A stretch of DNA of 64,000 nucleotides, taken from the NCBI GenBank assembly GCA_028699255.1, contig JAQVUX010000004.1, forward strand, positions 88,668 to 152,667. The letters run 5' to 3'. Position numbers and translations under genes: made by a program. The stretch comes from Candidatus Omnitrophota bacterium. Lineage in GTDB: Bacteria; Omnitrophota; Gorgyraeia; 2-01-FULL-45-10. This document shows, piece after piece, positions 3,347 through 56,458 of the stretch; within the stretch, counting starts at the first letter, position 1, and every line of letters starts with the position of its first letter. The notes below the pieces were generated by a model. The model saw only the letters and a program-made list of their open reading frames with translations. It searched no databases and was not told where the DNA came from.

Positions 3347-3730
3347 CTATTTTATAAGCGTAGTTACCTCCTGAGGAAGATTTTCCGACTTTTTTATAAA
3401 CGCCACTCCTATATCGTAAGACCCATTATCGTTGTCCTCTATCCTTACCACTTTTCCCAAAAGCCGATTATCGACTATGAGAGCGAGTTCTTCGATCTCT
3501 TCGCAAAGCCTCGTCGTCCTATAGTCGACATCGAGGATGATTATACTGGACAGCCTCGGCGGATATACGCTATTGAAGAGCATGCCCGATGCGCTTAAGT
3601 TTTTAGTAACGGCGTCGGCCAGGTCGGATACCGAATGGTCTTTTAAAGATATCTCTTTAAAATGCGCCTGTCCGTCATGCCTGTACCGGAAAAATTTTCT
3701 TCTATCCGCGCCCGCAAAATTGTCCGACAT
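3347..3730 (-). CDS. PilZ-domain c-di-GMP binding protein
   Basis: RRKFFR (RxxxR) and NLSASG ((D/N)xSxxG) motifs sit at the spacing expected for a PilZ domain. Confidence 0.65.
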   Translation of the reverse strand: MSDNFAGADRRKFFRYRHDGQAHFKEISLKDHSVSDLADAVTKNLSASGMLFNSVYPPRLSSIIILDVDYRTTRLCEEIEELALIVDNRLLGKVVRIEDNDNGSYDIGVAFIKKSENLPQEVTTLIK

Positions 3731-4131: not shown

Positions 4132-5064
4132 CTATTTGCTAAGTGTCAATATGATATTGTATGTGCCGTCGATCACTTTTGACATATTCGCGTAATCGAG
4201 CGTTTCGGCGCGGTCATTTTTGGAATGCATATAAGGATTGCGGTAGATGCACGTGTCGGTTATCCATATCGACTGGTATCCGAATACCCAGAAAGCGCGA
4301 TTGTCCGATGTCATGAGGCCGGGGAGTATCGGAGCAGGTATTATAAGGTATTCCGTCGGGATATCTGTCGCTTTTTTAAACTCGCCTACCGCCTCGCGCA
4401 GTATGGTGTATGCCGACAGGTCGCCGCTGAAACCTATGAAATTGCCCTTATCCGGATAGAACGGGGCGAGGGGGAGGGGGCGCTCCTGCGAGCCGGGCTT
4501 GTCGGAGTAGTAGCCGATCATGTCGATGCATATGACAAGCTCGATGTCGTCGCCTCTTATCCGCGCGTCTTTGGCGTACCGGTAACTGCCCGTGTCCTCA
4601 TCTTCGGAAACGAACTCGAGCTCTTCATTGGTGAATGCGATAAATTTCACCGTTTTTTCCGGATTCTCGGCGGAGAAACGCCGGGCCAGCTCCAGCACGG
4701 CGGCGATGCCGGAGGCATTATCATCCGCGCCGGGCGAATTCCAGTGAGTATCGTAATGGGCGCAGACTATTATGATCTTGTCCTTTTTGCTTCTGCCTTC
4801 CTTTGTGGCGATTATATTCTTAAACCGTCTCTCCGGTGAAAAGCCCGCTTCCATGGCGTAGACTTGCTCTTCGGGTTCGTAGCCGTATCGCCGGAATTCA
4901 TTTTCGATGTAATCTGCCGCGCGTTCGAGATTCCGGTAGTGGAGAGTATTGCGTGGGCCTATGATGGAGGATAAGACGCGGACATGCCGCGCAGTATCGT
5001 CTTCGGCATGCGCGTTAAAAACCGCGCACAATATGACAAGAATAGCGAAAAATAATTTTTTCAT
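4132..5064 (-). CDS. M28 family zinc aminopeptidase
   Basis: Signal peptide; HYD...DDNASG metal-ligand block typical of peptidase M28. Confidence 0.75.
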   Translation of the reverse strand: MKKLFFAILVILCAVFNAHAEDDTARHVRVLSSIIGPRNTLHYRNLERAADYIENEFRRYGYEPEEQVYAMEAGFSPERRFKNIIATKEGRSKKDKIIIVCAHYDTHWNSPGADDNASGIAAVLELARRFSAENPEKTVKFIAFTNEELEFVSEDEDTGSYRYAKDARIRGDDIELVICIDMIGYYSDKPGSQERPLPLAPFYPDKGNFIGFSGDLSAYTILREAVGEFKKATDIPTEYLIIPAPILPGLMTSDNRAFWVFGYQSIWITDTCIYRNPYMHSKNDRAETLDYANMSKVIDGTYNIILTLSK

Positions 5065-5175: not shown

Positions 5176-5531
5176 TCCCCTGTAGCTCAGTCGGTAGAGC
5201 ATCTGGCTGTGCACGAGCGAAGCGCCGAGTGCAAAACTCGGCGTACAGCGCCTAAAGTTAGCAGCCTGCGACGGAAACGTCGCGGTGAAAAGCGAGTAAA
5301 TTCAGGGAAATCCGTCAATGTATAATTGGCGGGCTATCCTGAGCCAAGCCTCACAATTGTGGGGAAGGTGCAGAGACTAGAGACTCGCTACCTAAGTCCT
5401 TTCGTCATTGCGAGGCCCGAAGGGCCGAAGCAATCTCAAGGGATATGGTAATGGTATAGTCCGACTCTCCGGGTAACCGGAGTCAGATCGTAACCAGAGT
5501 GTCCGAGGTTCGAGTCCTCGCGGGGGAGCCA
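5176..5531 (+). tRNA. tRNA-Asn(GUU) interrupted by a group I intron; exons 5176-5210 and 5491-5531, CCA encoded
   Basis: The exons give the acceptor stem TCCCCTG/CGGGGGA, discriminator G73, D-arm GCTC-AGTCGGTA-GAGC and anticodon stem TCTGG/CCAGA. The anticodon loop CUGU|UAA and T-arm CGAGG-TTCGAGT-CCTCG follow. The spliced sequence is near-identical in layout to E. coli tRNA-Asn. Confidence 0.8.
5211..5490 (+). ncRNA. Group I intron in the tRNA-Asn anticodon loop, 280 nt, no ORF
   Basis: The intron follows a U and ends in G. It contains R-like CAGAGACTA, S-like TATAGTCC and P-like AATTCAGGGAAAT elements, and a P9-like hairpin CCGGGTAACCGG. Confidence 0.7.
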
Positions 5532-6744: not shown

Positions 6745-6780
6745 GGGGACGGTTCTGGCGGCAATCCCAGACCTGTCCCT
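6745..6780. repeat. REP-like imperfect palindrome, copy A (GGGGACGGTTCTGGCGGCAATCCCAGACCTGTCCC)
   Basis: Near-identical to the copy at 8836-8870 and in inverted arrangement to the copy at 7345-7402. It abuts the RAYT gene. Confidence 0.7.
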
Positions 6781-7783: not shown

Positions 7784-8952
7784 ACATTTCTTTAGGAGCG
7801 GATGGAACTCCCAAAAGAAAACGGCGCGTGCGTTATAAGGGCAGGAATCCCCGGCGTTTTGACGAAAAATATAAGGAACTCAATCCGGTAAAATACGCGG
7901 ATGATATCGAGAAGATCGTAAAGAGCGGTAAAACTCCAGCCGGAACGCATCGGCCTATCTGTGTTAAAGAGATCCTGGAAGCCCTTGATCCTAAGCCCGG
8001 GCAAACCGGCTTAGACGGCACTTTAGGGTTCGGCGGCCACACAACGGAACTCCTTCGATGCATTATGCCCGCCGGGCGCCTTTTTGCTATAGATGCCGAT
8101 CCGATCGAGTTAAAGCGTACCGCTACGCGCCTGCGAGCTCTGGGCTTCACCGACAAAGAACTTATTTTTCGGCAAATCAATTTCGCCGGTATCCCTAAAA
8201 TGCTTACTGACGCAGGCGGCGGGTTTGATTTTATTTTGGCGGATCTGGGCGTTTCGTCAATGCAATTAGACAATCCCGCCCGGGGGTTTACCTTTAAATG
8301 GGAGGGGCCGCTTGATATGAGATTTAATCCCGAACGCGGCCAGCCGGCCTCGGCTTTGATCAAGACAATCTCCGAAAAATCTCTGGAAAAAATACTTTTT
8401 ATTAACTCCGACGAACCTCATGCGAAAACGATAGCCGCGGCTATCCATAAGAACTGCCATAAAATTAACACAACTAAAGCGCTTGCGGATACCGTAAAAG
8501 AAGCGCTGACTACTGTAGCGCATGTAGGTTCCAAGGATGAGATAACCACGTCGATCCGCCGTACATTCCAGGCTTTACGCATTGAAGTTAACGACGAGTT
8601 TTCGGCGTTGGAGCAGTTTTTAAGGAATCTACCGATATGCCTTAAGCCCGACGGGCGAGTGGCTATTTTAACCTTTCACTCCGGTGAAGATAACAGGGTG
8701 GTTAAGTCTTTCCGGGATGGATTGAGATCGGGCATCTATTCTGAAATTTCCCGCGATCCAATAAGGCCGACGCCTAAGGAATGTTTTGATAACCCGCGTT
8801 CCAAGAGTGCAATATTACGCTGGGCTATAAAAAATGGGGACGGTTCTGACGGCAATCCCAGACCTGTCCCTCGTAGCGAGCTAAAAATCACACCAAGTTA
8901 CCCATCCTATGATATAATTACTTCCGATGAAAAAGAAAATCCTGATCCTTAA
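7780..8952 (+). CDS. rsmH: 16S rRNA (cytosine1402-N4)-methyltransferase RsmH with N- and C-terminal extensions
   Basis: DGTLGFGGH, DLGVSSMQLD, GPLDMRF, TFHSGEDNRVVK and NPRSKSAILRWA blocks. A ~55-aa basic N-terminal tail is present. The last ~40 codons read through an embedded REP copy. Confidence 0.8.
   Translation: MNISLGADGTPKRKRRVRYKGRNPRRFDEKYKELNPVKYADDIEKIVKSGKTPAGTHRPICVKEILEALDPKPGQTGLDGTLGFGGHTTELLRCIMPAGRLFAIDADPIELKRTATRLRALGFTDKELIFRQINFAGIPKMLTDAGGGFDFILADLGVSSMQLDNPARGFTFKWEGPLDMRFNPERGQPASALIKTISEKSLEKILFINSDEPHAKTIAAAIHKNCHKINTTKALADTVKEALTTVAHVGSKDEITTSIRRTFQALRIEVNDEFSALEQFLRNLPICLKPDGRVAILTFHSGEDNRVVKSFRDGLRSGIYSEISRDPIRPTPKECFDNPRSKSAILRWAIKNGDGSDGNPRPVPRSELKITPSYPSYDIITSDEKENPDP
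8836..8870. repeat. REP-like palindrome, copy C, embedded in the 3' end of rsmH
   Basis: GGGGACGGTTCTGACGGCAATCCCAGACCTGTCCC, one mismatch relative to copy A. Confidence 0.7.
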
Positions 8953-9542: not shown

Positions 9543-10286
9543 ATGAAGAAGAGCCTGATTTTCAGCAGTATATTAGTCTCGGCGTTTTTAGTTGTACATA
9601 ACGTTTATGCTCAGGAACCCGCAATTGATTATAAGCAATTGATAGCTAAATGCAGTGAGGCAATTAAACAGGCAAAATCATACAATGCTAAGATGGAATA
9701 CGCAAACTCCTTTACAATTAACTCGCAGGAGAACAAGGGTAATTCCGCGGAGTTAAGCATAGCTTTTATAAGCCCGGACAAATTTAAGATAGCGCAAGTT
9801 ATAGATGAGGGCTCGGATGAGAAGTTGTGGGACGGCTGGATAGTTATAGGCGATGATTATTATGTTCTTAAGCCGGTTTTCGGATGGGCAAAGGAAGATG
9901 ACGATAATCGCAAAACAATGTGCAGAGCTTACTCTCCCGAAGGCATTATAAAACAGTTAGCAGAGATCGAAAAGGGGTACAGGAGAGATTCGATAAGCTC
10001 TGCTACTAAAGACGGAATAGAATATTTTGTAATCAAATATTTATTCGGCAAAGAATCAATTAATGTCGAATCTTTACCGCCGGAATTAAAAGATAGCAAA
10101 ATAAACGGAACATATGAAATTTGGATCAATAAAAATAATTATTTACCGGTAAAACAATCGGAGGAAGTTTCCTATTATTCGAATGAGCGGAATAAGGGGA
10201 CTTCATCAGCGGTCACAAATTATTTCGCATATAATGATGATAAGATAAAAATCGACGTGCCTGTGCCCGGCGATAAGACTTTTTAA
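9543..10286 (+). CDS. Hypothetical exported protein
   Basis: Signal peptide, no motif recognised. Confidence 0.4.
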   Translation: MKKSLIFSSILVSAFLVVHNVYAQEPAIDYKQLIAKCSEAIKQAKSYNAKMEYANSFTINSQENKGNSAELSIAFISPDKFKIAQVIDEGSDEKLWDGWIVIGDDYYVLKPVFGWAKEDDDNRKTMCRAYSPEGIIKQLAEIEKGYRRDSISSATKDGIEYFVIKYLFGKESINVESLPPELKDSKINGTYEIWINKNNYLPVKQSEEVSYYSNERNKGTSSAVTNYFAYNDDKIKIDVPVPGDKTF

Positions 10287-10350: not shown

Positions 10351-10965
10351 ATGATTTCCTGCCCCTATCATCCTCATCCGTGTTATAATTACAGCATGCA
10401 GACATATTCCAATCGTAAGCATTGCATTCATTTCCGCCGCAACAGGACTATCAAAACATTCATAATAACCGCCTGCCTCGTTTTTTTATTTACGCTTCCC
10501 GCAATGTGCATATCTACCGGTGAGAAAGCGCCTTATTTTAAGATAACTTCGGGCAGTAGTGAAGTTCTTACGGCCGATATGTTGAAAGATAAAATAGCTG
10601 TTATCTTTTACGAGACAAAAGATACAAAAGAAAAGAACAGGGCACTCAAAGAAGATCTAAACGCTTTTTACAAAGAGCGATCCGCGAAAATACAAAAAGA
10701 AATAATGAAAGTGGCCGTTATACGATGCTCTGCCTTTATGCCGAATATATGGCGACAAAGTTTGCGTGAGAATTCCAAAAAAGAAGGCATGATTATATAC
10801 GGAGATTGGGATGGTGCCATGCAAAATGAGTACGGTCTGGCCGTTGGAGAAAGTAATTTTATTATTATTGATAAGAACGGCATTGTTATATATACGAGGG
10901 CAGGATTTATTCCAAAAGAAGATTTTCCGGCAATAAGAAATATTTTAAATGGTGCAGGAGAATAA
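10351..10965 (+). CDS. Hypothetical membrane-anchored protein, possibly thioredoxin-fold without CxxC
   Basis: RBS AGGGGAGGA before the ATG, one TM helix, redoxin-like spacing but no catalytic Cys pair. Confidence 0.35.
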   Translation: MISCPYHPHPCYNYSMQTYSNRKHCIHFRRNRTIKTFIITACLVFLFTLPAMCISTGEKAPYFKITSGSSEVLTADMLKDKIAVIFYETKDTKEKNRALKEDLNAFYKERSAKIQKEIMKVAVIRCSAFMPNIWRQSLRENSKKEGMIIYGDWDGAMQNEYGLAVGESNFIIIDKNGIVIYTRAGFIPKEDFPAIRNILNGAGE

Positions 10966-10980
10966 TGGCCGGGGGTATTT

Positions 10981-11613
10981 GTGGGATTAATATCGCTTCT
11001 CTTCAGTAACCCGGCCCTATTTGTAATTCTCGCCATCCTGCTTTTGTATTCTGTGATAATCCATGAGATTGCTCACGGCTGGGCCGCGTATCTTTTTGGA
11101 GATGATACGGCGATGCGTTCCGGCAGGCTTTCTCTTAATCCGATGTTTCATCTCGACCCGGTAGGGACGATAATGCTTTTTATCGTGGGTTTCGGTTGGG
11201 CAAAACCGGTACCTGTTGATTATTCGAGGCTGAAAAATTTTCGCCTGGGCCTCATCTCTGTTTCGCTGGCAGGATGCCTGGCAAATATACTCATAGCGGC
11301 CATCGCGCTATTTTTGCTTCGGGCCGGTATCGCCGGCTCAAATCCTACGGCTGTATTTTTGTTGTCCCTCGTCGCGAGGATAAATATAATACTTGGAGCC
11401 GTCAACCTTATACCGATTCCGCCTCTGGATGGGTCCAAAATACTTATGGGTTTTTTGCCCAGAACCGGACAGGCGATTTTAGCGCGATTCGACACATATG
11501 GACTGCTTCTCCTGATGCTCTTGCTTTTTTCAGGCCTTTTGAATCCGGTTATAATGTTCATGCAGAAGGCTATCCTGAGCATGCTAGGATTTCTGTTTGG
11601 GATGGTTAGATAA
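10981..11613 (+). CDS. M50 family (site-2 protease-like) zinc metalloprotease
   Basis: HEIAHGWAAY (HExxH) within a TM helix, and a downstream LDG motif. Polytopic membrane protein. Confidence 0.75.
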   Translation: MGLISLLFSNPALFVILAILLLYSVIIHEIAHGWAAYLFGDDTAMRSGRLSLNPMFHLDPVGTIMLFIVGFGWAKPVPVDYSRLKNFRLGLISVSLAGCLANILIAAIALFLLRAGIAGSNPTAVFLLSLVARINIILGAVNLIPIPPLDGSKILMGFLPRTGQAILARFDTYGLLLLMLLLFSGLLNPVIMFMQKAILSMLGFLFGMVR

Positions 11614-18165: not shown

Positions 18166-18326
18166 TAGAAATAACCGCGTAGGTTATTTGAGTGAATGAT
18201 AGCGGGATAACCGCGTAGGTTATTTGAGTAAAATAACTGGCCAACCTACGCGGTTGGAGGGGTGTTGGTGTCAGATAACCGCGTAGGTTATTTGACGGTA
18301 AGCGCCTGTACAACCTACGCGGTTGG
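18166..18326. repeat. Array of five short palindromic elements (three ATAACCGCGTAGGTTAT, two CCAACCTACGCGGTTGG) in a divergent intergenic region
   Basis: Direct and inverted copies alternate, so the array can fold into two long hairpins. The same 13-mer recurs at 46438-46487 and 46898-46947. Confidence 0.7.
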
Positions 18327-24091: not shown

Positions 24092-24126
24092 GGGGCGCCC
24101 TCAAAAATATGTGCGGCGCCCCTTTT
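24092..24126 (+). terminator. Intrinsic terminator
   Basis: GGGGCGCC/GGCGCCCC stem followed by TTTTGAG. Confidence 0.55.
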
Positions 24127-24300
24127 GAGTTAGATATGATAACCCCGCCGGGAGTGAAAAAAAGGGCGGGGCGATTGCCTGAGTTAGATATGATAACCCC
24201 GCCGGGAGTGAAAAAAAGGGCGGGGCGATTGCCTGAGTTAGATATGATAACCCCGCCGGGAGTGAAAAAAAGGGCGGGGCGATTGCCTGAGTTAGATAAC
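24127..24300. repeat. About 3.2 tandem copies of a 54-bp unit, each with a CCCCGCC/GGCGGGG hairpin and A-rich loop
   Basis: The units at 24127, 24181 and 24235 are identical. They lie immediately upstream of the lrp start. Confidence 0.8.
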
Positions 24301-24318
24301 ATCAATCGGAGGTATGAT

Positions 24319-24804
24319 ATGAACGAGATTCTGGAAATACTGGAGAAGAATGCCCGGGCGACGCCCGAAGAGATAGCGAAGATGCTCGATATTACCCCGG
24401 CATCTGTGAAGAATTCGATAAAGAAGCTGGAGAAAGAAGGCGTCATATTAAAGTACAAGACGATAATAAATAAAGAGATTATCAGAGAAGAAGACTCCGG
24501 AGTTCGCGCGTTAATAGAGGTGAGAGTTACGCCGCAGAAGAACGTAGGTTTTGAGGCCATTGCCGAACGTATATACCAATTTCCGGAGGTGACGAGTTGT
24601 TATCTGATGTCGGGAGCTTACGACCTTCTGATCGTCGTCGAGGGAAGCAATATACAAAAGGTAGCGAGTTTTGTCGCGGAGAAGCTTTCCTCCATGGAGA
24701 ATGTCCGCGGGACCGCGACTCATTTCATATTAAAAAAATACAAAGAAGACGGGGATATATTAAAACAGCCGCAGTCCTCGAAGCGCCCGGCGATCACATT
24801 GTAA
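24319..24804 (+). CDS. Lrp/AsnC family transcriptional regulator
   Basis: An HTH (TPEEIAKMLDITPASV) followed by a RAM domain. RBS GGAGG lies before the ATG at 24319. Confidence 0.8.
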   Translation: MNEILEILEKNARATPEEIAKMLDITPASVKNSIKKLEKEGVILKYKTIINKEIIREEDSGVRALIEVRVTPQKNVGFEAIAERIYQFPEVTSCYLMSGAYDLLIVVEGSNIQKVASFVAEKLSSMENVRGTATHFILKKYKEDGDILKQPQSSKRPAITL

Positions 24805-44233: not shown

Positions 44234-44413
44234 ATTTTTTTCGTCTGACGCAGGCGGCGACTTTTGGGTGGTGCCTCCGCTTGTCGCGAATCGCATTAGG
44301 TATACGATTCGCTGTCAAAAATTTTAAGAGTCGCTTCGGCACGCACCCAAAAGTTCCGCCACCTCGTGTGTGAACATAATAAGTTTTAGGTTCTGACTGG
44401 AGTGGAAGGCAAT

Positions 44414-45265
44414 ATGAAATATCTGATCGTGAGCGCGGATGATTTTGGATTATCAGATAGTATAAATCACGGGATAATGCGCGGCTGTGAAGAGGGGATA
44501 GTGACATCGGTTAATGTTATCCCCTCCGGCGCGGCATTCTACGACGCGGCTTCTCTTCTGCGGATGTGTGGCATAAAAGAGCTCAGCGCGCATCTTGCGC
44601 TTACCGAAACAGCGCCGGTTACAGACCCGGATATGATTCCAGGGCTCTTGACGCAGGAAGGTGATTTTCATAAAAGTTACATGGGGTTCTGTTTCTATTT
44701 TTTACGTGGGGCTATAGTCCGCGATGAAATATATCTGGAGCTTAAGAATCAGCTTGAACGTCTTAAAACCTGTGGTTTACCTATAACCAGCCTAAGCAGT
44801 CACCAGCATATACATATACTTCCCGGGATACGGGAAATATTTATACAACTTGCCAAAGAATACGATATTCCCTCGATACGGTATCTGCACAATGACAAGT
44901 TATATTATCCGTATCGTGCGAAGAAGATATTCCGCAAGATGGTCCTGAAGTTTTTTGACAGGGGTATGAAGAACGCATTTGATAAGGCAGGTATTTGTCA
45001 TACCGACAACCTGCTCGGGTTTTTCGATTCCGGGGATATACGGGAAGAGCTTTTATTGGAGATGATAAACAGCTTAAAAAGCGGGGTTACCGAGCTTGTA
45101 ACCCACCCCGGTTTTATAAGCGCCGAAGTACTCGACAGATGCATATTCCACAGAAACTGCGAAACCGATCTCGCCGCGTTGACCAGCCGCCGTGTTAAAA
45201 AAGAAATAGCCCGCAAAGGTATCAAGCTCATCTCATTTAGCGATCTCGCCAAACTACGTAAATAG
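44414..45265 (+). CDS. YdjC/ChbG family carbohydrate deacetylase
   Basis: MKYLIVSADDFGLS N-terminus characteristic of the YdjC family. His-rich metal site. Confidence 0.7.
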   Translation: MKYLIVSADDFGLSDSINHGIMRGCEEGIVTSVNVIPSGAAFYDAASLLRMCGIKELSAHLALTETAPVTDPDMIPGLLTQEGDFHKSYMGFCFYFLRGAIVRDEIYLELKNQLERLKTCGLPITSLSSHQHIHILPGIREIFIQLAKEYDIPSIRYLHNDKLYYPYRAKKIFRKMVLKFFDRGMKNAFDKAGICHTDNLLGFFDSGDIREELLLEMINSLKSGVTELVTHPGFISAEVLDRCIFHRNCETDLAALTSRRVKKEIARKGIKLISFSDLAKLRK

Positions 45266-45319
45266 AAAAAAGCGGGTCAAACCTAAGGTTGATTTAAGAC
45301 GGAAATTATGCTATATTAA

Positions 45320-45781
45320 GTGCCGAAAATGACCGATAATATAGTCGCCACCAACAGGCGGGCAAGATTCGAATATAGCATCTACGAGAGCCTTGAGGCC
45401 GGCATAGCGCTTACAGGCACCGAGGTTAAGTCATTGCGTACCGGTAAGGCGAGCATTGCCAATAGTTTCGCGAGGATCGAAGGCGATGAGGTGTTCCTCC
45501 ATGGTATGCATATAGCGCCATACGAATTTGGTAATATTGCTAACCCCGATCCGTTGCGGCCAAGAAAACTGCTCCTGCATAAAAGAGAGATAAAACGGCT
45601 TGCGGAGGACGTTGGAAATAAGAAATTAACGATTATCCCGCTCAAAGCTTATTTTAAAGGCGGGATAGTTAAAGTAGAAATAGGCCTTGCGAAAGGCAAG
45701 AAGCTCTACGATAAGCGTGAAGCGATAAAGAAGAGAGATTCCGATAGAGAAATTAAGCGGATATCGAGAAGTACCAGGTAG
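45320..45781 (+). CDS. smpB: SsrA-binding protein SmpB
   Basis: IA.NRRARFEYSI.E..EAGIAL.GTEVKSLR N-terminal signature. Confidence 0.85.
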   Translation: MPKMTDNIVATNRRARFEYSIYESLEAGIALTGTEVKSLRTGKASIANSFARIEGDEVFLHGMHIAPYEFGNIANPDPLRPRKLLLHKREIKRLAEDVGNKKLTIIPLKAYFKGGIVKVEIGLAKGKKLYDKREAIKKRDSDREIKRISRSTR

Positions 45782-45796
45782 GGCCGTTCTTTTATA

Positions 45797-46244
45797 GGGG
45801 GTGAAAGGTATCGACTCAGATACGCAGAGCACAAGCAGCATGTAGAGGTTGCTAGGAGGCCTCTTGGCGCAAGCCATTCCTACGGTAACGTGGGGATAAA
45901 ACACCTGGCAAAAAATCAAATGCTGAAAACGTAAAAGTTCCAGCAACGGTGAACGAACTCCTAAGCACCATGCAAGTGGTGCCGGGGCCAGTTCTACCGG
46001 TAGCGTTACCTTTATAAGGTAACCCGTCAGCCGGCCTATTTCCGCGGGGCCGGGTCTGGCGACACTAGCGGGATAGTCCGACGGTGTTTAGCCTTTGGCG
46101 CTTTCGGGCGAAGCTTTCAAAGGATACCTTTTCGAAATTCCGCCTACTGAAGTTCGAAAGGGGAAATTAAAGAGCAGGATAAACATGTAGCGGCTTATGT
46201 TTTGATGTTTGAGGACGGCGGTTCAAATCCGCCCACCTCCACCA
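45797..46244 (+). ncRNA. ssrA: tmRNA (ssrA), about 448 nt, CCA encoded
   Basis: Lies immediately downstream of smpB. The 5' GGGGGUG...GGUAUCGAC pairs with a 3' tRNA-like end: T-arm GGCGG-UUCAAAU-CCGCC, then CACCUCC-A-CCA. The tag reading frame could not be read confidently by eye. Confidence 0.7.
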
Positions 46245-46437
46245 TACTCTGAAAATCTTTCGAAGAAGATTTTCAGGTCCTGGCGTCTAAGATACTTCGA
46301 TTTTGTTCCACAAAATCGAAGGACTCAGGAAACAACGCGAAGAAAGTTTTCAGGTCCTGGCGTCTAAGATACTTCGATTTTGTTCCACAAAATCGAAGGA
46401 CTGAAGAAGTATTTGTCGCGAGAGCGTTCCGACTACT
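46245..46437 (+). repeat. 3' trailer module Y1 after tmRNA (internal tandem duplication with 11-bp-stem hairpins)
   Basis: Begins TACTCTGAAAATC directly after the CCA. It is near-identical to the module after tRNA-Leu at 46683-46895. Confidence 0.75.
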
Positions 46438-46487
46438 GCAACCGCGTAGGTTTGCATGCGATAATCACAGGTAACCTACGCGGTTGT
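46438..46487. repeat. Palindrome pair GCAACCGCGTAGGTTTGC ... GGTAACCTACGCGGTTG
   Basis: Same 13-mer family as the array at 18166-18326. Confidence 0.7.
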
Positions 46488-46496
46488 TCAAGAGCT

Positions 46497-46556
46497 TTAG
46501 CGGGGCAATAGATACACAGTTGGGCGGAAGTGGCCCGCCTTCGCAATCAAGGCTTA
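46497..46556 (+). pseudogene. Partial duplicate of the tRNA-Leu upstream region plus the first ~12 nt of the tRNA, fused to a TIR-like sequence GGCCCGCCTTCGCAATCAAGGC
   Basis: GCGGGGCAATAGATACACAGTTGG|GCGGAAGTGGC matches 46574-46609 upstream of and into the real tRNA-Leu. Confidence 0.6.
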
Positions 46557-46597
46557 ATATGTTCGATGCTTTGGCGGGGCAAGAGATATACAGTTGG

Positions 46598-46682
46598 GCG
46601 GAAGTGGCGGAACTGGCATACGCGCAGGTCTCAGAAGCCTGTGCCGCAAGGCTTGAGGGTTCAAATCCCTCCTTCCGCACCA
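46598..46682 (+). tRNA. tRNA-Leu(CAG), CCA encoded
   Basis: Acceptor GCGGAAG/CTTCCGC, anticodon loop CUCAGAA, long variable arm, T-arm GAGGG-TTCAAAT-CCCTC. Confidence 0.85.
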
Positions 46683-46895
46683 TACTCTGAAAATCTTTCA
46701 AAGAAGATTTTCAGGTCCTGGAGTCTAAGATACTTCGATTTTTCTCTGAAAAATCGAAGGACTCAGGAAACAACGCGAAGAAAGTTTTCAGGTCCTGGAG
46801 TCTAAGATACTTCGATTTTTCCTGAAATTTTCTCCGAAAATTTCGAGAAAAATCGAAGGACTTTAGGAAGCAACGCGAAGAAATTCAATCGACTA
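46683..46895 (+). repeat. 3' trailer module Y2 after tRNA-Leu (duplicate of Y1)
   Basis: Same start TACTCTGAAAATC after the CCA and the same hairpins. It is followed by the palindrome pair at 46898-46947. Confidence 0.75.
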
Positions 46896-46987
46896 CTGCA
46901 ACCGCGTAGGTTTGCATGCGATAATCACAGAATAACCTACGCGGTTGTTCAAAATTACATAGAGGCCATATTACTACTTATAGATAT

Positions 46988-48097
46988 TTGCATTTAATCG
47001 TAGTAATCATATCAGTCGCGGTATTGACAGCCGGATGCGCTACTCAGGCAACGCATTTCCGGCTCGACACTTCTTTGCAGAAGGATATAGCGATGCTGAG
47101 CGGGGCGGAGTATATATCACTCGCGAAACTGTGTGATTTCTATGGAATAGAATATAAATACGACACTTTTACCGGTCGCGCCGATGTCAGGAAGGGGCCG
47201 AATATAGTGGTCATAAGGACGGGCGGCTCCGGCGTACTTGTAAACGGTGAATTTGTGAAATCCGATAATCCTGTCATAATGCGCGATGGCGTGCTTTTTG
47301 TGCCGATGGCACTTGTAAAAAACAACATGGGCCCTGTGATGGGCCGTCCAGCCGTTGCTATTCTACCTAAGGAGGAGGCGGGCCCGAAGAGGTTTTTCAT
47401 AAAATCAATAGTGATAGATGCCGGCCATGGCGGCAAGGATCCGGGCGCTTTGGGCAGGCGTAGCCGTTTAAGAGAGAAGGATATGACCCTCCGGGCCGCA
47501 CGAAAGCTTAAATCACTGCTGGAAGACGCCGGTATCCGGGTAATCATGACAAGGGATAGTGATGTTTTTATACCGCTTGAGACGCGCTCATCCATCGCCA
47601 ATCGCAGTGGTGCTGATCTTTTTGTAAGCGTACACATAAATTCCTCGCGCGCGCGTTCAATGAGAGGTTTCGAGTGCTACTATCTTGCGAATACGACGGA
47701 CGATAATGCCCGGGCCCTCGAGGCTATGGAAAATTCTTCGCTACGCCTGGATAGCGCGGCTCTGGTCGAACATTCGCGCCGTTTGGATAAAGCGCTCTGG
47801 GATCTGACGCTGACCGAAAACAGAATAGAGTCGGCAGAGCTTGCCGGTTCGATATGCGATTCCATCGATTCCGGGCTTACGATGGGCAATCGCGGTGTGC
47901 GCACGGCGAGATTCTATGTGCTTAAGTTCACGCATATACCGGCGGTTCTGGTCGAGGCGGGTTATTTAAGCAATAAATATGAAGAATTGAAATTGAAGGA
48001 TCCCGATTTCTTAGACAGGGTTGCGGAATCCGTAGCGCAGGGCATATTGAGATATAAGCGGGAGTACGAAAGAACCCAGGGGTTTACGAGGATATAA
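46988..48097 (+). CDS. N-acetylmuramoyl-L-alanine amidase (AmiC-like; AMIN plus Amidase_3 domains)
   Basis: Lipobox LTAGC. IDAGHGGKDPGA zinc site. E and H ligands lie downstream. Confidence 0.8.
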   Translation: MHLIVVIISVAVLTAGCATQATHFRLDTSLQKDIAMLSGAEYISLAKLCDFYGIEYKYDTFTGRADVRKGPNIVVIRTGGSGVLVNGEFVKSDNPVIMRDGVLFVPMALVKNNMGPVMGRPAVAILPKEEAGPKRFFIKSIVIDAGHGGKDPGALGRRSRLREKDMTLRAARKLKSLLEDAGIRVIMTRDSDVFIPLETRSSIANRSGADLFVSVHINSSRARSMRGFECYYLANTTDDNARALEAMENSSLRLDSAALVEHSRRLDKALWDLTLTENRIESAELAGSICDSIDSGLTMGNRGVRTARFYVLKFTHIPAVLVEAGYLSNKYEELKLKDPDFLDRVAESVAQGILRYKREYERTQGFTRI

Positions 48098-53092: not shown

Positions 53093-53103
53093 TATGATAT
53101 AAT

Positions 53104-53176
53104 CGGGGCGTAGCGCATCCCGCCCGGAAGCTGACAGGGGGCGGGACCCCGCCTTGAGTAAAACAGATGGCGGGGG
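53104..53176 (+). repeat. Pseudo-leader module X1: first 14 nt of tRNA-Pro fused to a conserved double GC-clamp hairpin core
   Basis: CGGGGCGTAGCGCA is followed by TCCCGCCCGGAAGCTGACAGGGGGCGGGACCCCGCCTTGAGTAAAACAGATGGCGGGG. A TATAAT-like sequence lies immediately upstream. Confidence 0.75.
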
Positions 53177-53216
53177 CTGGCTAATAACCGGTAGTCGTGT
53201 AGATATTTGTAATTTT

Positions 53217-53336: not shown

Positions 53337-53520
53337 CGTCCCTGTAGCTTCCCGCCCGGAAGCTGACAGGGGGCGGGACCCCGCCTTGAGTAAAACAGAT
53401 GGCGGGGCAGTTGGATATTGATTAACAACGTCCCTGTAGCTTCCCGCCCGGAAGCTGACAGGGGGCGGGACCCCGCCTTGAGTAAAACAGATGGCGGGGC
53501 AGTTGGATATTGATTAACAA
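53337..53520 (+). repeat. Two identical 92-bp pseudo-leader modules X2/X3: first 14 nt of tRNA-Arg, the same double-hairpin core, and a 21-nt spacer
   Basis: The units at 53337-53428 and 53429-53520 are identical. Each begins CGTCCCTGTAGCT as the real tRNA does at 53521. Confidence 0.8.
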
Positions 53521-53521
53521 C

Positions 53522-53893
53522 GTCCCTGTAGCTCAGTTGGATAGAGCATCTGCCTTCAATAGGAGCGTCTATGCGGAATATGAACGCATAGAATGAATGC
53601 AGCTATATGCAAGGAACCCCTGTCATACACAGGGCAATTTGCAGGCAACCAAGCGAGCTACAGATAAATCGGTCCATGGGAAGGAGGTGAAGATTGCAAC
53701 ATTAATAACCAAAATCTTCACGTTAAATGGGCCGACGATTATCTGAAGCTCGAATGGGAGTCCTCAGAGACTATACGCTGCACACCTGAAATGGTGAAGA
53801 CATAGTCCAGACCGCAACGTAACAACGGCCGGAGTAATCCGGTGCGGTAAGCTAAGCAGAGGGTCGCCTGTTCGAATCAGGCCAGGGACGCCA
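53522..53893 (+). tRNA. tRNA-Arg(UCU) interrupted by a group I intron; exons 53522-53556 and 53852-53893, CCA encoded
   Basis: The exons give acceptor GTCCCTG/CAGGGAC and G73. The D-arm GCTC-AGTTGGATA-GAGC is identical to that of E. coli argU. The anticodon stem is TCTGC/GCAGA, the loop is CUU|CUAA, and the T-arm is GCCTG-TTCGAAT-CAGGC. Confidence 0.7.
53557..53851 (+). ncRNA. Group I intron in the tRNA-Arg anticodon loop, 295 nt, no ORF
   Basis: Follows a U and ends in G. It contains R-like CAGAGACTA, S-like GACATAGTCC and a P9-like CCGGAGTAATCCGG hairpin. It resembles the tRNA-Asn intron. Confidence 0.65.
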
Positions 53894-54040
53894 TCCGCCT
53901 TCGCATTCAAGGCGTAAAAGAGAGAATGCTTCGGCGGATTTTTATCCGCCATAGCCAGCATGTCGTAAAAGGCAGAAGGCGACGGCGGATGAGCCCGCCG
54001 AAGCACCTTATCTATTAAGCGTTGATTGCGAAGGCGGGCC
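53894..54040. mobile_element. MITE-like element with ~20-bp terminal inverted repeats (CCGCCTTCGCATTCAAGGCG ... GCGTTGATTGCGAAGGCGGG) and internal hairpins
   Basis: Inserted directly after the CCA of tRNA-Arg. A solo TIR-like copy is at 46534-46555. Confidence 0.5.
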
Positions 54041-54053
54041 ATTAAACTCCAAT

Positions 54054-54299
54054 ATGCACTACGTCTATATACTAAAAAGCCTCAAAACCAAAGATAAGCT
54101 CTATGTCGGATTAACCGGCAATCTTGAGCGTCGCCTTAAAGAACACGACGAGACATCAAGCGATCATTACACATATCGCCATCGTCCATGGAAACTCGAA
54201 ACATATATTTCATTTCAAAGTAATTTGGCTGCTAAGAAATTCGAGGCTTATTTAAAAACAGGTTCAGGCAGGGCATTCATTAGGCGGCACCTTATTTAG
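54054..54299 (+). CDS. GIY-YIG nuclease superfamily protein (UPF0213/YhbQ-like)
   Basis: YVYILKS...LYVGLTGNLERRLKEH GIY-YIG core. 81 aa. Confidence 0.8.
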   Translation: MHYVYILKSLKTKDKLYVGLTGNLERRLKEHDETSSDHYTYRHRPWKLETYISFQSNLAAKKFEAYLKTGSGRAFIRRHLI

Positions 54300-56252: not shown

Positions 56253-56319
56253 CTTATATTGACACCATATCTCTCGAGGCTTATAATTAACATAAATAAG
56301 CTATATTCCTTTGGCTACA

Positions 56320-56456
56320 TATAAAAGGAAGCGGGGGAACCAAGCCACGGTCTACGATAGATCTTGGGGCGAATATCTAAAATATCTACAATGTAGTAGA
56401 TTAGGGTCACTCAACCCGAGCCCGACAGCTAACCCCGTAAGCTAACATGAGAGAAT
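56320..56456 (+). promoter_or_regulatory. Candidate c-di-AMP riboswitch (ydaO/kimA class) in the kdp leader
   Basis: GCGGGGGAACCA, UUGGGGCGAAUAUC, and GGGUCACUCAACCCGAGCCCGACAGCUAACCCCGUAAGC resemble conserved ydaO-motif segments as recalled from memory. An intrinsic terminator follows. Confidence 0.55.
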
Positions 56457-56458
56457 GC

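Follow-up and report, generated by a model that had tools for sequence, protein, structure and literature searches.

In this study of a 64-kb stretch of Candidatus Omnitrophota DNA (hereafter the window), we found that the transfer-messenger RNA (tmRNA) gene ssrA and the neighbouring tRNA-Leu(CAG) gene are each followed, directly after the CCA end, by a copy of one palindrome-rich non-coding sequence. The copy after ssrA (45797-46244, + strand; 3' end ...CCTCCACCA; ARAGORN; Rfam RF00023, 149 bits) is trailer W1 (46245-46491, +, 247 nt), and its paralogue after tRNA-Leu(CAG) (46598-46682, +; ARAGORN and Rfam) is trailer W2 (46683-46952, +, 270 nt). We favour, with a probability of roughly 55%, a lineage-specific segmental duplication tied to recurrent inversion of a tRNA-Leu/smpB/ssrA cassette at its CCA ends, followed by a second inversion that would have turned the copies into direct repeats.

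The relationship between the two trailers is clear from several comparisons. In both genes the CCA is directly followed by TACTCTGAAAATCTT..., and W1 and W2 are 81-91% identical depending on the measure: an ungapped family pairs 46220-46381 with 46658-46819 (162 nt) at 91% identity, two blocks are 100% identical (46430-46470 with 46890-46930, 41 nt; 46472-46491 with 46933-46952, 20 nt), the mean column identity of a MAFFT alignment is 87%, and BLAST aligns 299 nt at 80.6% identity (E = 2e-78). Diagnostic 20-, 22- and 28-mers occur at these two sites only in the 64 kb, where the chance expectation is 0. These data demonstrate that W1 and W2 are paralogous copies of one palindrome-rich non-coding stretch, now lying as direct repeats 438 bp apart. 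An earlier note on this DNA had described the same sequence and near-identical modules after both CCA ends, which the 91% and 100% blocks and the BLAST match confirm; the duplicated, structured trailer that it put at ~200 bp is longer.

Each trailer is built in the same order: TACT, a first hairpin (HP1), two 77-nt units with a second hairpin (HP2), a linker, a third hairpin (HP3) and TTCAA. HP1 of W1 (46249-46276, +) starts 4 nt past the CCA and pairs CTGAAAATCTT with AAGATTTTCAG in an 11-bp stem with a 6-nt loop. HP2 in unit 1 of W1 (46279-46329, +; fold z score -5.4) consists of CCUGG.GUC, a UAAGAUA internal loop, a 12-bp CTTCGATTTTGT stem and GAC.CAGG, and the HP2 core of unit 2 (46372-46398, +) lies 77 nt past that of unit 1. 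HP3 has a 14-bp stem (CAACCGCGTAGGTT), which is also a dispersed 13-mer (see below), with a 20-nt loop in W1 (46439-46486, +); in W2 (46899-46947, +) a 14-bp stem carries a 21-nt loop. The modules had been described as internally duplicated from two 11-bp-stem hairpins; the duplication is real, but the repeated 77-nt unit holds the CTTCGATTTT hairpin (HP2, with its 12-bp stem) plus merely the 3' arm of the first hairpin, and the complete CTGAAAATCTT/AAGATTTTCAG hairpin is found once per trailer only. Similarly, the two trailers do end in a common hairpin, which spans 48-49 nt within a 62-nt near-identical block and not the 60 nt given before. In W2, a 22-nt insertion, palindromic in its own right, extends the second HP2, and a truncated third unit junction takes the place of the W1 linker.

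The folding check proposed in the earlier note gave RNA folds far more stable than shuffled controls for both W1 (-93 kcal/mol, z = -7.35) and W2 (-104 kcal/mol, z = -9.24). Units 1 and 2 are told apart by GA/AG in both trailers; GGCGTC/GGAGTC, as well as the top pair and loop of HP2 (a G-C to T-A swap), separate W1 from W2 and are common to both units within a trailer. Differences between W1 and W2 are rarer at paired (15/158) than at unpaired (20/89) positions (p = 0.007). These between-copy differences fit either selection on structure or DNA-level templated correction together with palindrome growth.

To place the trailers in context, we compared eight genomes, namely the window and the smpB loci of seven related Omnitrophota whose SmpB is 75-85% identical to that of the window. 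The seven related genomes are those of the loci L003=L004, L005/6, L007/8/9, L010, L012, L013 and L016/17. All genes of the cassette region in the window lie on the + strand: YdjC (44402-45265, Pfam), smpB (45329-45781; Pfam SmpB in homologues), ssrA, tRNA-Leu and an Amidase_3 gene (46988-48097, Pfam), beyond which come conserved que genes. The window SmpB is 100% identical to a protein of an NCBI 'Candidatus Omnitrophica bacterium' metagenome-assembled genome (MAG). The neighbourhood is syntenic in all relatives, and smpB and ssrA form the conserved core of the cassette, with block homology to all relatives covering 45285-46244. In 7/7 related genomes tRNA-Leu(CAG) is found on the other strand, upstream of smpB, and the 3' ends of tRNA-Leu and ssrA both face outward from a cassette of ~1.1 kb.

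This cassette exists in both orientations. Three genomes (L007/8/9, L010, L016/17) have the direct type, YdjC+, Leu- smpB+ ssrA+, amidase+; in the other four (L003, L005/6, L012, L013) the cassette is flipped between the same YdjC and amidase flanks, and BLAST homologies of the flanks swap partners according to cassette orientation. On a poorly resolved, star-like neighbour-joining tree, at least two inversions are needed, and the window adds an event of its own. A third arrangement is found in the window, where tRNA-Leu adjoins the amidase flank as in the inverted type and smpB-ssrA faces the other way. The window tRNA-Leu keeps an L005-like upstream region, and a 41-nt partial duplicate of its 5' part also matches L005 upstream of tRNA-Leu. 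Homology to all relatives on the smpB side ends at 45285, a position that, by our reading of the sequences, appears to fall inside the -35 of the relatives' divergent tRNA-Leu promoter.

Trailers shared by the two genes also arose independently in relatives. In L003, a ~107-nt element, which we call X, begins at the first base past the CCA of both ssrA and tRNA-Leu, and its two copies are 81-82% identical. A covariance-model search over the window and 17 related loci (241 kb) located X at 10931-11037 (+) and 9720-9826 (-) of L003, 4903-5009 (+) of L013 and 4893-5002 (+) of L016; it occurs only after ssrA (L003, L013, L016-18) and after tRNA-Leu in L003/L004. X has several stems, with compensatory changes at 7/30 predicted pairs, and matches no Rfam family; it is a candidate for a new structured element linked to ssrA in some Omnitrophota, and its covariation would fit a real structure of RNA or single-stranded DNA. 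After ssrA the element is ancestral, and L003 alone has copied it to tRNA-Leu. The L003 copy after tRNA-Leu lies on the amidase side with the same downstream terminator, which is where the ssrA-X of the direct-type L016 sits. This position matches the prediction of an inversion-linked duplication of the breakpoint; the outcome would be no different if an inverted repeat had arisen first and had then served for homologous inversion. The same covariance model found no X in the window, and the idea that W is a diverged X was rejected.

In L005, a related hairpin (TGTACCACTCGC...GCTCGGGTACA) follows both ssrA and tRNA-Leu, and its inner stem carries a compensatory change. Both genes are also followed by a ~50-nt unit of weak similarity (alignment score 20 vs -11.6 +/- 4.8 for shuffles). 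On the tRNA-Leu side, L005 (9170-9700, -) is arranged like the E. coli tyrT region: the gene and its hairpin lead into four ~50-nt units in tandem, and after 130 nt of unique sequence a 21-nt stretch of the tRNA-Leu 3' end recurs, followed by the same hairpin and two further units. A single unit homologous to these follows tRNA-Leu in L012. W, X and the L005 trailer are mutually unrelated in sequence. L007 and L010 are essentially trailerless, with ssrA abutting the amidase gene and tRNA-Leu abutting YdjC, and in L012, L013 and L016 trailers are present and not shared between the two genes. Sharing is therefore seen in 2/4 inverted-type genomes plus the window and in 0/3 direct-type genomes, which are small numbers. 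In all cases the shared homology begins within or just after CACCA, and neither T-stem nor acceptor strand has been exchanged between the genes, which rules out a T-loop integrase crossover; the CCA-adjacent junctions fit microhomology, filtered by selection for intact genes.

Taken together, we propose that a palindrome-rich stretch lying 3' of one tRNA-like gene was copied to the corresponding position beside the other. The outer ends of the cassette are the 3' ends of tRNA-Leu and ssrA, which resemble each other (GGTTCAAMTCC...CACCA). The DNA just past both CCA ends would be a reused breakpoint at which the cassette flipped more than once. Either staggered breaks could have duplicated the flank in inverted form during an inversion, or a copy of the flank may have been made first, by template switching with the tRNA-like ends as anchors, and have mediated the inversion by homologous recombination. 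The window would descend from an 'inverted-type' ancestor with the module as an inverted repeat on both sides. The shared copies are inverted in L003 and L005 and direct in the window, so the window needs a second event: a further inversion of smpB-ssrA-trailer would have put ssrA upstream of tRNA-Leu and made the copies direct repeats. The module itself is a patchwork of private hairpins, which would have grown by local duplication and palindromic insertion, plus a hairpin of repetitive extragenic palindromic (REP) type. Turnover of palindromes at the DNA level is visible in the changes common to both 77-nt units of a trailer, in the G-C to T-A swap of HP2 and in the 22-nt palindromic insertion, which speaks for this reading. 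The order of events and the molecular mechanism are thus our reconstruction, in which the trailers would probably be transcribed and then removed and would have no sequence-specific RNA function.

The suggestion of a recombination hotspot in the earlier note is upheld, because the cassette occurs in both orientations and, in the window, in a third arrangement, because trailer sharing recurred in three lineages with unrelated sequences, and because duplicated tRNA fragments lie at tRNA loci. Several points weigh against the scheme of inversion and duplication. No ancestral single-copy W module was found among the fetched relatives, and a loss must be assumed for the inverted-type L012 and L013, which have no shared trailer. 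With eight genomes and a star-like tree, the number and direction of inversions are not statistically secure; neither is the association of sharing with inverted type (3/5 against 0/3). The 41-nt direct duplicate of the tRNA-Leu 5' part is not predicted by a simple second inversion and needs a separate tandem duplication. Finally, the sparing of paired positions and the very stable hairpins also fit selection on RNA structure.

In a different explanation, the trailers are functional 3' external transcribed spacers that would stop transcription or block 3' exonucleases, direct the processing of both stable RNAs, or yield small RNAs as the E. coli tyrT repeats/rtT or 3'ETS-leuZ do, and were copied because both genes use the module. 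The exceptional stability of the folds (z = -7.4 and -9.2) and the stems spared or compensated between W1 and W2 speak for such a role, as do the recurrence of a hairpin directly past the CCA and of ~50-77-nt hairpin units after tRNA-Leu in L005 and L012, and the 7/30 compensatory pairs of X after ssrA in L003, L013 and L016. Moreover, no separate strong tRNA-Leu promoter was detected, so that ssrA and tRNA-Leu could be co-transcribed through W1. However, W shows no sequence conservation outside this genome, the close relatives L007 and L010 are trailerless, and tRNA-Pro and tRNA-Arg of the same window do without W. A BLAST of all trailers against each other gave no similarity of W to any relative's trailer, and the W module was not found in the 17 related loci or after the tRNA-Pro and tRNA-Arg of the window. 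In addition, perfect palindromes and 'compensatory' changes can come from DNA-level templated correction.

Known signals were likewise absent. A scan of 45200-47100 for intrinsic terminators found no terminator-like site in W1 or W2, in agreement with the earlier description of hairpins without U-tracts: HP1 and HP2 have A+T-rich stems that contain the T-run, and HP3 is followed by TTCAA. Among Rfam 15 families, including RtT and the tmRNA extensions, only tmRNA and tRNA reached the gathering threshold; all trailer matches were microRNA-type hairpin noise far under it, and a search at permissive thresholds over the trailers and over three relatives returned tmRNA and tRNA only. A search of the literature on Omnitrophota plus tmRNA found nothing relevant. 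The earlier proposal of a shared 3'-processing or stability element is thus not supported as a conserved function, given the absence of the module from relatives, tRNA-Pro and tRNA-Arg, the trailerless L007 and L010, and the lack of Rfam matches and terminators; an RNA-level function in this genome is possible. Overall, we consider functional spacers an unlikely explanation of the duplication.

HP3 adds a further argument against a spacer role, as its stem is also found between two gene starts. The 13-mer AACCGCGTAGGTT has 9 exact copies at 3 loci in the 64 kb: 4 in the trailers and 5 in an array at 18173-18324, where they follow one another as + + - + - with a period of ~34 nt. On one side of this array an alpha/beta-hydrolase gene begins and on the other, divergently transcribed, another open reading frame (ORF), so HP3 cannot act as a trailer or terminator there; the adjoining ORF, of 328 aa, has no Pfam match. 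The array hairpins have the stem of HP3 and different loops (variable, 21-22 nt). HP3 therefore belongs to a dispersed REP-like palindrome family, and the array could be like a bacterial interspersed mosaic element (BIME) or REP cluster, or a set of protein-binding sites. The HP3 loop is common to W1 and W2, which indicates that HP3 was copied with the module and not inserted twice. The HP1 and HP2 sequences have no further copy in 64 kb. The earlier note had held that a module found broadly after protein-coding genes, as a generic terminator family, would make its link to stable RNAs coincidental. This holds in part: the HP3 stem is also present five times in a divergent promoter region, and HP1 and HP2 are private to the trailers.

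We also considered whether the trailers could be remnants of small mobile or integrative DNA that homes to the 3' ends of tRNA-like genes and arrived independently at ssrA and tRNA-Leu. Candidates would be decayed elements flanked by attachment (att) sites and mobilised in trans, or hairpin-ended non-autonomous transposons. The module begins exactly past the CCA in both genes, as do the shared trailers of L003 and L005, and HP3 belongs to a dispersed repeat family. In L005, the 21-nt duplicate of the tRNA-Leu 3' end lies 350 nt downstream of the gene in an attR-like position. In L012, one tRNA-Leu allele was replaced by another in situ: two 20-nt fragments of the tRNA-Leu 5' end, each with the same 63-nt spacer behind it, lie at 3367-3540 (-) upstream of the intact gene, and the promoter-proximal (first) fragment is of the other allele type, that of the window, L013 and L016. 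The disagreement of tRNA-Leu allele types with the smpB/ssrA tree likewise points to allele replacement.

A mobile origin also draws on the sequence between W1 and tRNA-Leu in the window. Here, a repeat-family search identified a partial tRNA-Leu 5' duplicate (46494-46534, +, 41 nt), which comprises 30 nt of upstream sequence and nt 1-11 of the gene and is 93% identical to 46568-46608. It is fused to a solo 19-mer, CCGCCTTCGCAATCAAGGC (46535-46553, +), which is the terminus of the 43-nt inverted repeat ends of a 143-nt element at 53895-54037. The earlier note had thus correctly recognised an upstream copy of tRNA-Leu fused to a sequence resembling a terminal inverted repeat (TIR), but the copy includes nt 1-11 of the gene, not its first 12 nt, and is 41 nt long. 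The 143-nt element itself, which resembles a miniature inverted-repeat transposable element (MITE), has imperfect 43-nt TIRs and starts 1 nt past the CCA of tRNA-Arg. It is followed by a GIY-YIG ORF (54054-54299, +, 81 aa; Pfam E = 1.7e-14), and a GIY-YIG ORF also lies beside tRNA-Arg in L005. An element 1 nt past a tRNA CCA, next to such an ORF and with one end fused to a tRNA-Leu 5' fragment, speaks for a mobile origin.

W itself, by contrast, has neither TIRs nor a target-site duplication nor a flanking copy of a tRNA 3' end. Its left and right ends (TACTCTGAAAATC and CGCGGTTGTTCAA) are not inverted repeats and its flanks (CACCA on one side, GAGC or AATT on the other) are not duplicated, unlike those of a MITE; nor does a second copy of the ssrA or tRNA-Leu 3' end follow W1 or W2, as an attL/attR pair would require. 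HP1 and HP3 are unrelated, unlike the paired ends of hairpin-guided transposons. The conserved neighbourhood contains no integrase or transposase, the genes keep their own T-stem and acceptor strand in a way that excludes a T-loop crossover, and HP1 and HP2, besides having no other copy in 64 kb, gained no support from genome, metagenome and viral collections. In these, GTCTAAGATACTTCGATTTT had one match among genome contigs, in a Promethearchaeota MAG, where ~1 chance match is expected for a 20-mer, and none in the metagenome or viral contig collections; GCAACCGCGTAGGTTTGCATGC had none in the metagenome or viral contig collections, and HP1, the TIR 19-mer and a gapped HP3 pattern had none in the viral contig collection. 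A mini-transposon of the hairpin-guided IS200/IS605 type was rejected, the left and right hairpins being dissimilar and extra copies lacking. We therefore regard independent arrival of homing DNA as improbable.

A broader variant would treat all CCA-adjacent modules alike (W, X, and the hairpin with ~50-nt units of L005 and L012). They might be fast-evolving structured 3' spacers, or small elements that specifically colonise tRNA-like 3' ends, spreading between ssrA and tRNA-Leu via the shared T-arm and CCA and maybe acting as co-transcribed RNAs that affect tmRNA or tRNA maturation or stability. We consider this less probable still.

Finally, a metagenomic mis-join or collapsed repeat could in principle produce duplicated trailers. 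The sole independent assembly (Logan L002) is 100% identical over 10.5 kb and ends at 45862, inside ssrA, so that the trailers rest on one assembly. However, artefactual repeats would be identical, whereas W1 and W2 have diverged by 9-19%, with substitutions, an insertion of 22 nt and an exchanged linker. The junctions of both trailers with functional genes are intact, and shared trailers are present in independent assemblies of relatives (L003 = L004, L005 = L006). The contig of L002 breaks off in a part of ssrA that co-occurring relatives have in conserved form, which is a trivial reason for the break. We consider an artefact very improbable. In the same vein, unitig breaks at cassette ends (short Logan contigs L004, L014 and L018) were dropped as evidence of inversion at the population level, since conserved tRNA and tmRNA ends explain such breaks.

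Other stable-RNA loci carry duplicated fragments too. Upstream of tRNA-Pro in the window lies one copy of a construct (53103-53196, +) in which nt 1-14 and nt 15-22 of the tRNA are separated by a 58-nt insert with two hairpins (TCCCGCCCGGAAGCTGACAGGGGGCGGGACCCCGCCTTGAGTAAAACAGATGGCGGGG). Upstream of tRNA-Arg(TCT) the same construct, made from nt 1-12 and 13-22 of that tRNA, forms two identical 92-nt tandem units (53337-53520, +). In both cases the first stretch is 12-14 nt and the second 8-10 nt long, with a short leader behind it, and within the insert the tRNA-Arg 5' end is found in inverted copy. On the strength of these arrangements and those of L012 and L005, stable-RNA genes in this lineage are general foci of small duplications and palindrome formation.

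Additional features were noted in passing. The anticodon loop of tRNA-Arg(TCT) (53522-53893, +; missed by ARAGORN) is split by a ~295-nt group I intron (RF00028, 44.8 bits over 53546-53825, just below the gathering score of 50), and in L003, L005 and L007 tRNA-Arg lies beside tRNA-Pro and has no intron. A second intron-containing tRNA, not called by ARAGORN, lies at 5176-5531 (+), with exons TCCCCTGTAGCTCAGTCGGTAGAGCATCTGGCT... and ...CCAGAGTGTCCGAGGTTCGAGTCCTCGCGGGGGAGCCA and a group I intron between them (Rfam, 5243-5483, 70.5 bits). ARAGORN predicts for the tmRNAs of the window and its relatives the tag AENVKVPATVNELLSTMQVVPGPVLPVALPL, nearly invariant throughout the clade, which has 31 aa, is unusually long and lacks the usual AA end. 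A cyclic di-AMP riboswitch of the ydaO/yuaA type is found at 56289-56458 (+; Rfam, 84 bits). A k-mer scan returned a ~200-nt tandem array with CCCCGCC/GGGCGGGG hairpins (24126-24328) and a 36-nt repeat, GGGGACGGTTCTGGCGGCAATCCCAGACCTGTCCCT, present twice ~2 kb apart (6745-6780 and 8836-8871).

If inversion-linked duplication is the correct explanation, outward-facing 3' ends of tRNA-like genes would act as a reusable pair of breakpoints that repeatedly flips a small essential cassette and copies flanking DNA from one gene to the other. The locus would then illustrate cleanly, in a bacterium and at single-nucleotide resolution, how inversions can duplicate sequence and reuse breakpoints, and would explain assembly breaks around ssrA and tRNA genes in these organisms. 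It would also warn against taking every strongly folding, duplicated stretch behind a stable-RNA gene for a processing signal. The intron-containing tRNAs and the conserved element after tmRNA in relatives are unannotated features worth study in their own right.

Several known systems resemble this locus in part. In the E. coli tyrT operon, a 178-bp unit is repeated 3.14 times in the distal part and is the source of the rtT/RttR RNA; each unit reportedly starts with the last ~19 nt of the tRNA, as described by Egan and Landy in 1978. The window likewise has repeated structured units directly downstream of a tRNA gene, and L005 has the exact layout, with a 21-nt tRNA-Leu 3' end and trailer, repeated. 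In contrast to tyrT, the copies in the window follow two genes, tmRNA and tRNA-Leu, each with its own 3' end, and their units contain no tRNA 3' fragment; there is no similarity to RtT in sequence or in Rfam, and no trailer-encoded peptide or Rho site is evident in the window. The 3'ETS-leuZ of E. coli illustrates that a structured trailer of a tRNA precursor could act as an RNA itself; for the W trailers there is no sign of targets, conservation or accumulation.

The 3' ends of tRNA and tmRNA genes are classical integration sites, and here too hypervariable DNA starts at the 3' ends of ssrA and of a tRNA gene, with tRNA fragments nearby. Unlike at such sites, there is no integrase and no island, the fragment in the window is a 5' one with promoter-proximal DNA, and the acceptor strands were not exchanged. 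REP and BIME sequences share with the HP3 stem AACCGCGTAGGTT its shortness, palindrome formation, intergenic position, alternating orientation, ~34-nt spacing and a GTAG motif. The differences are that the window has only 3 loci in 64 kb, that HP1 and HP2 are not dispersed, and that no REP-associated tyrosine transposase (RAYT, a Y1 transposase) was seen among the eight window ORFs scanned against Pfam.

A close parallel to the reading we favour is the staggered-break model, in which an inversion is linked to inverted duplicates of the sequence at its breakpoints (Ranz et al. 2007, PMC1885836). That model was described for Drosophila chromosomes and not for bacteria; here, two tRNA-like genes 1.1 kb apart provide the breakpoints with their CCA ends, and the copies in the window are direct. 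As in the staggered-break inversions, an inverted segment is bounded by inverted copies of a flank that was once single-copy and non-repetitive, breakpoints are reused, and the duplicates diverge by substitutions and small indels (PMC1885836). L003 and L005 fit this pattern directly.

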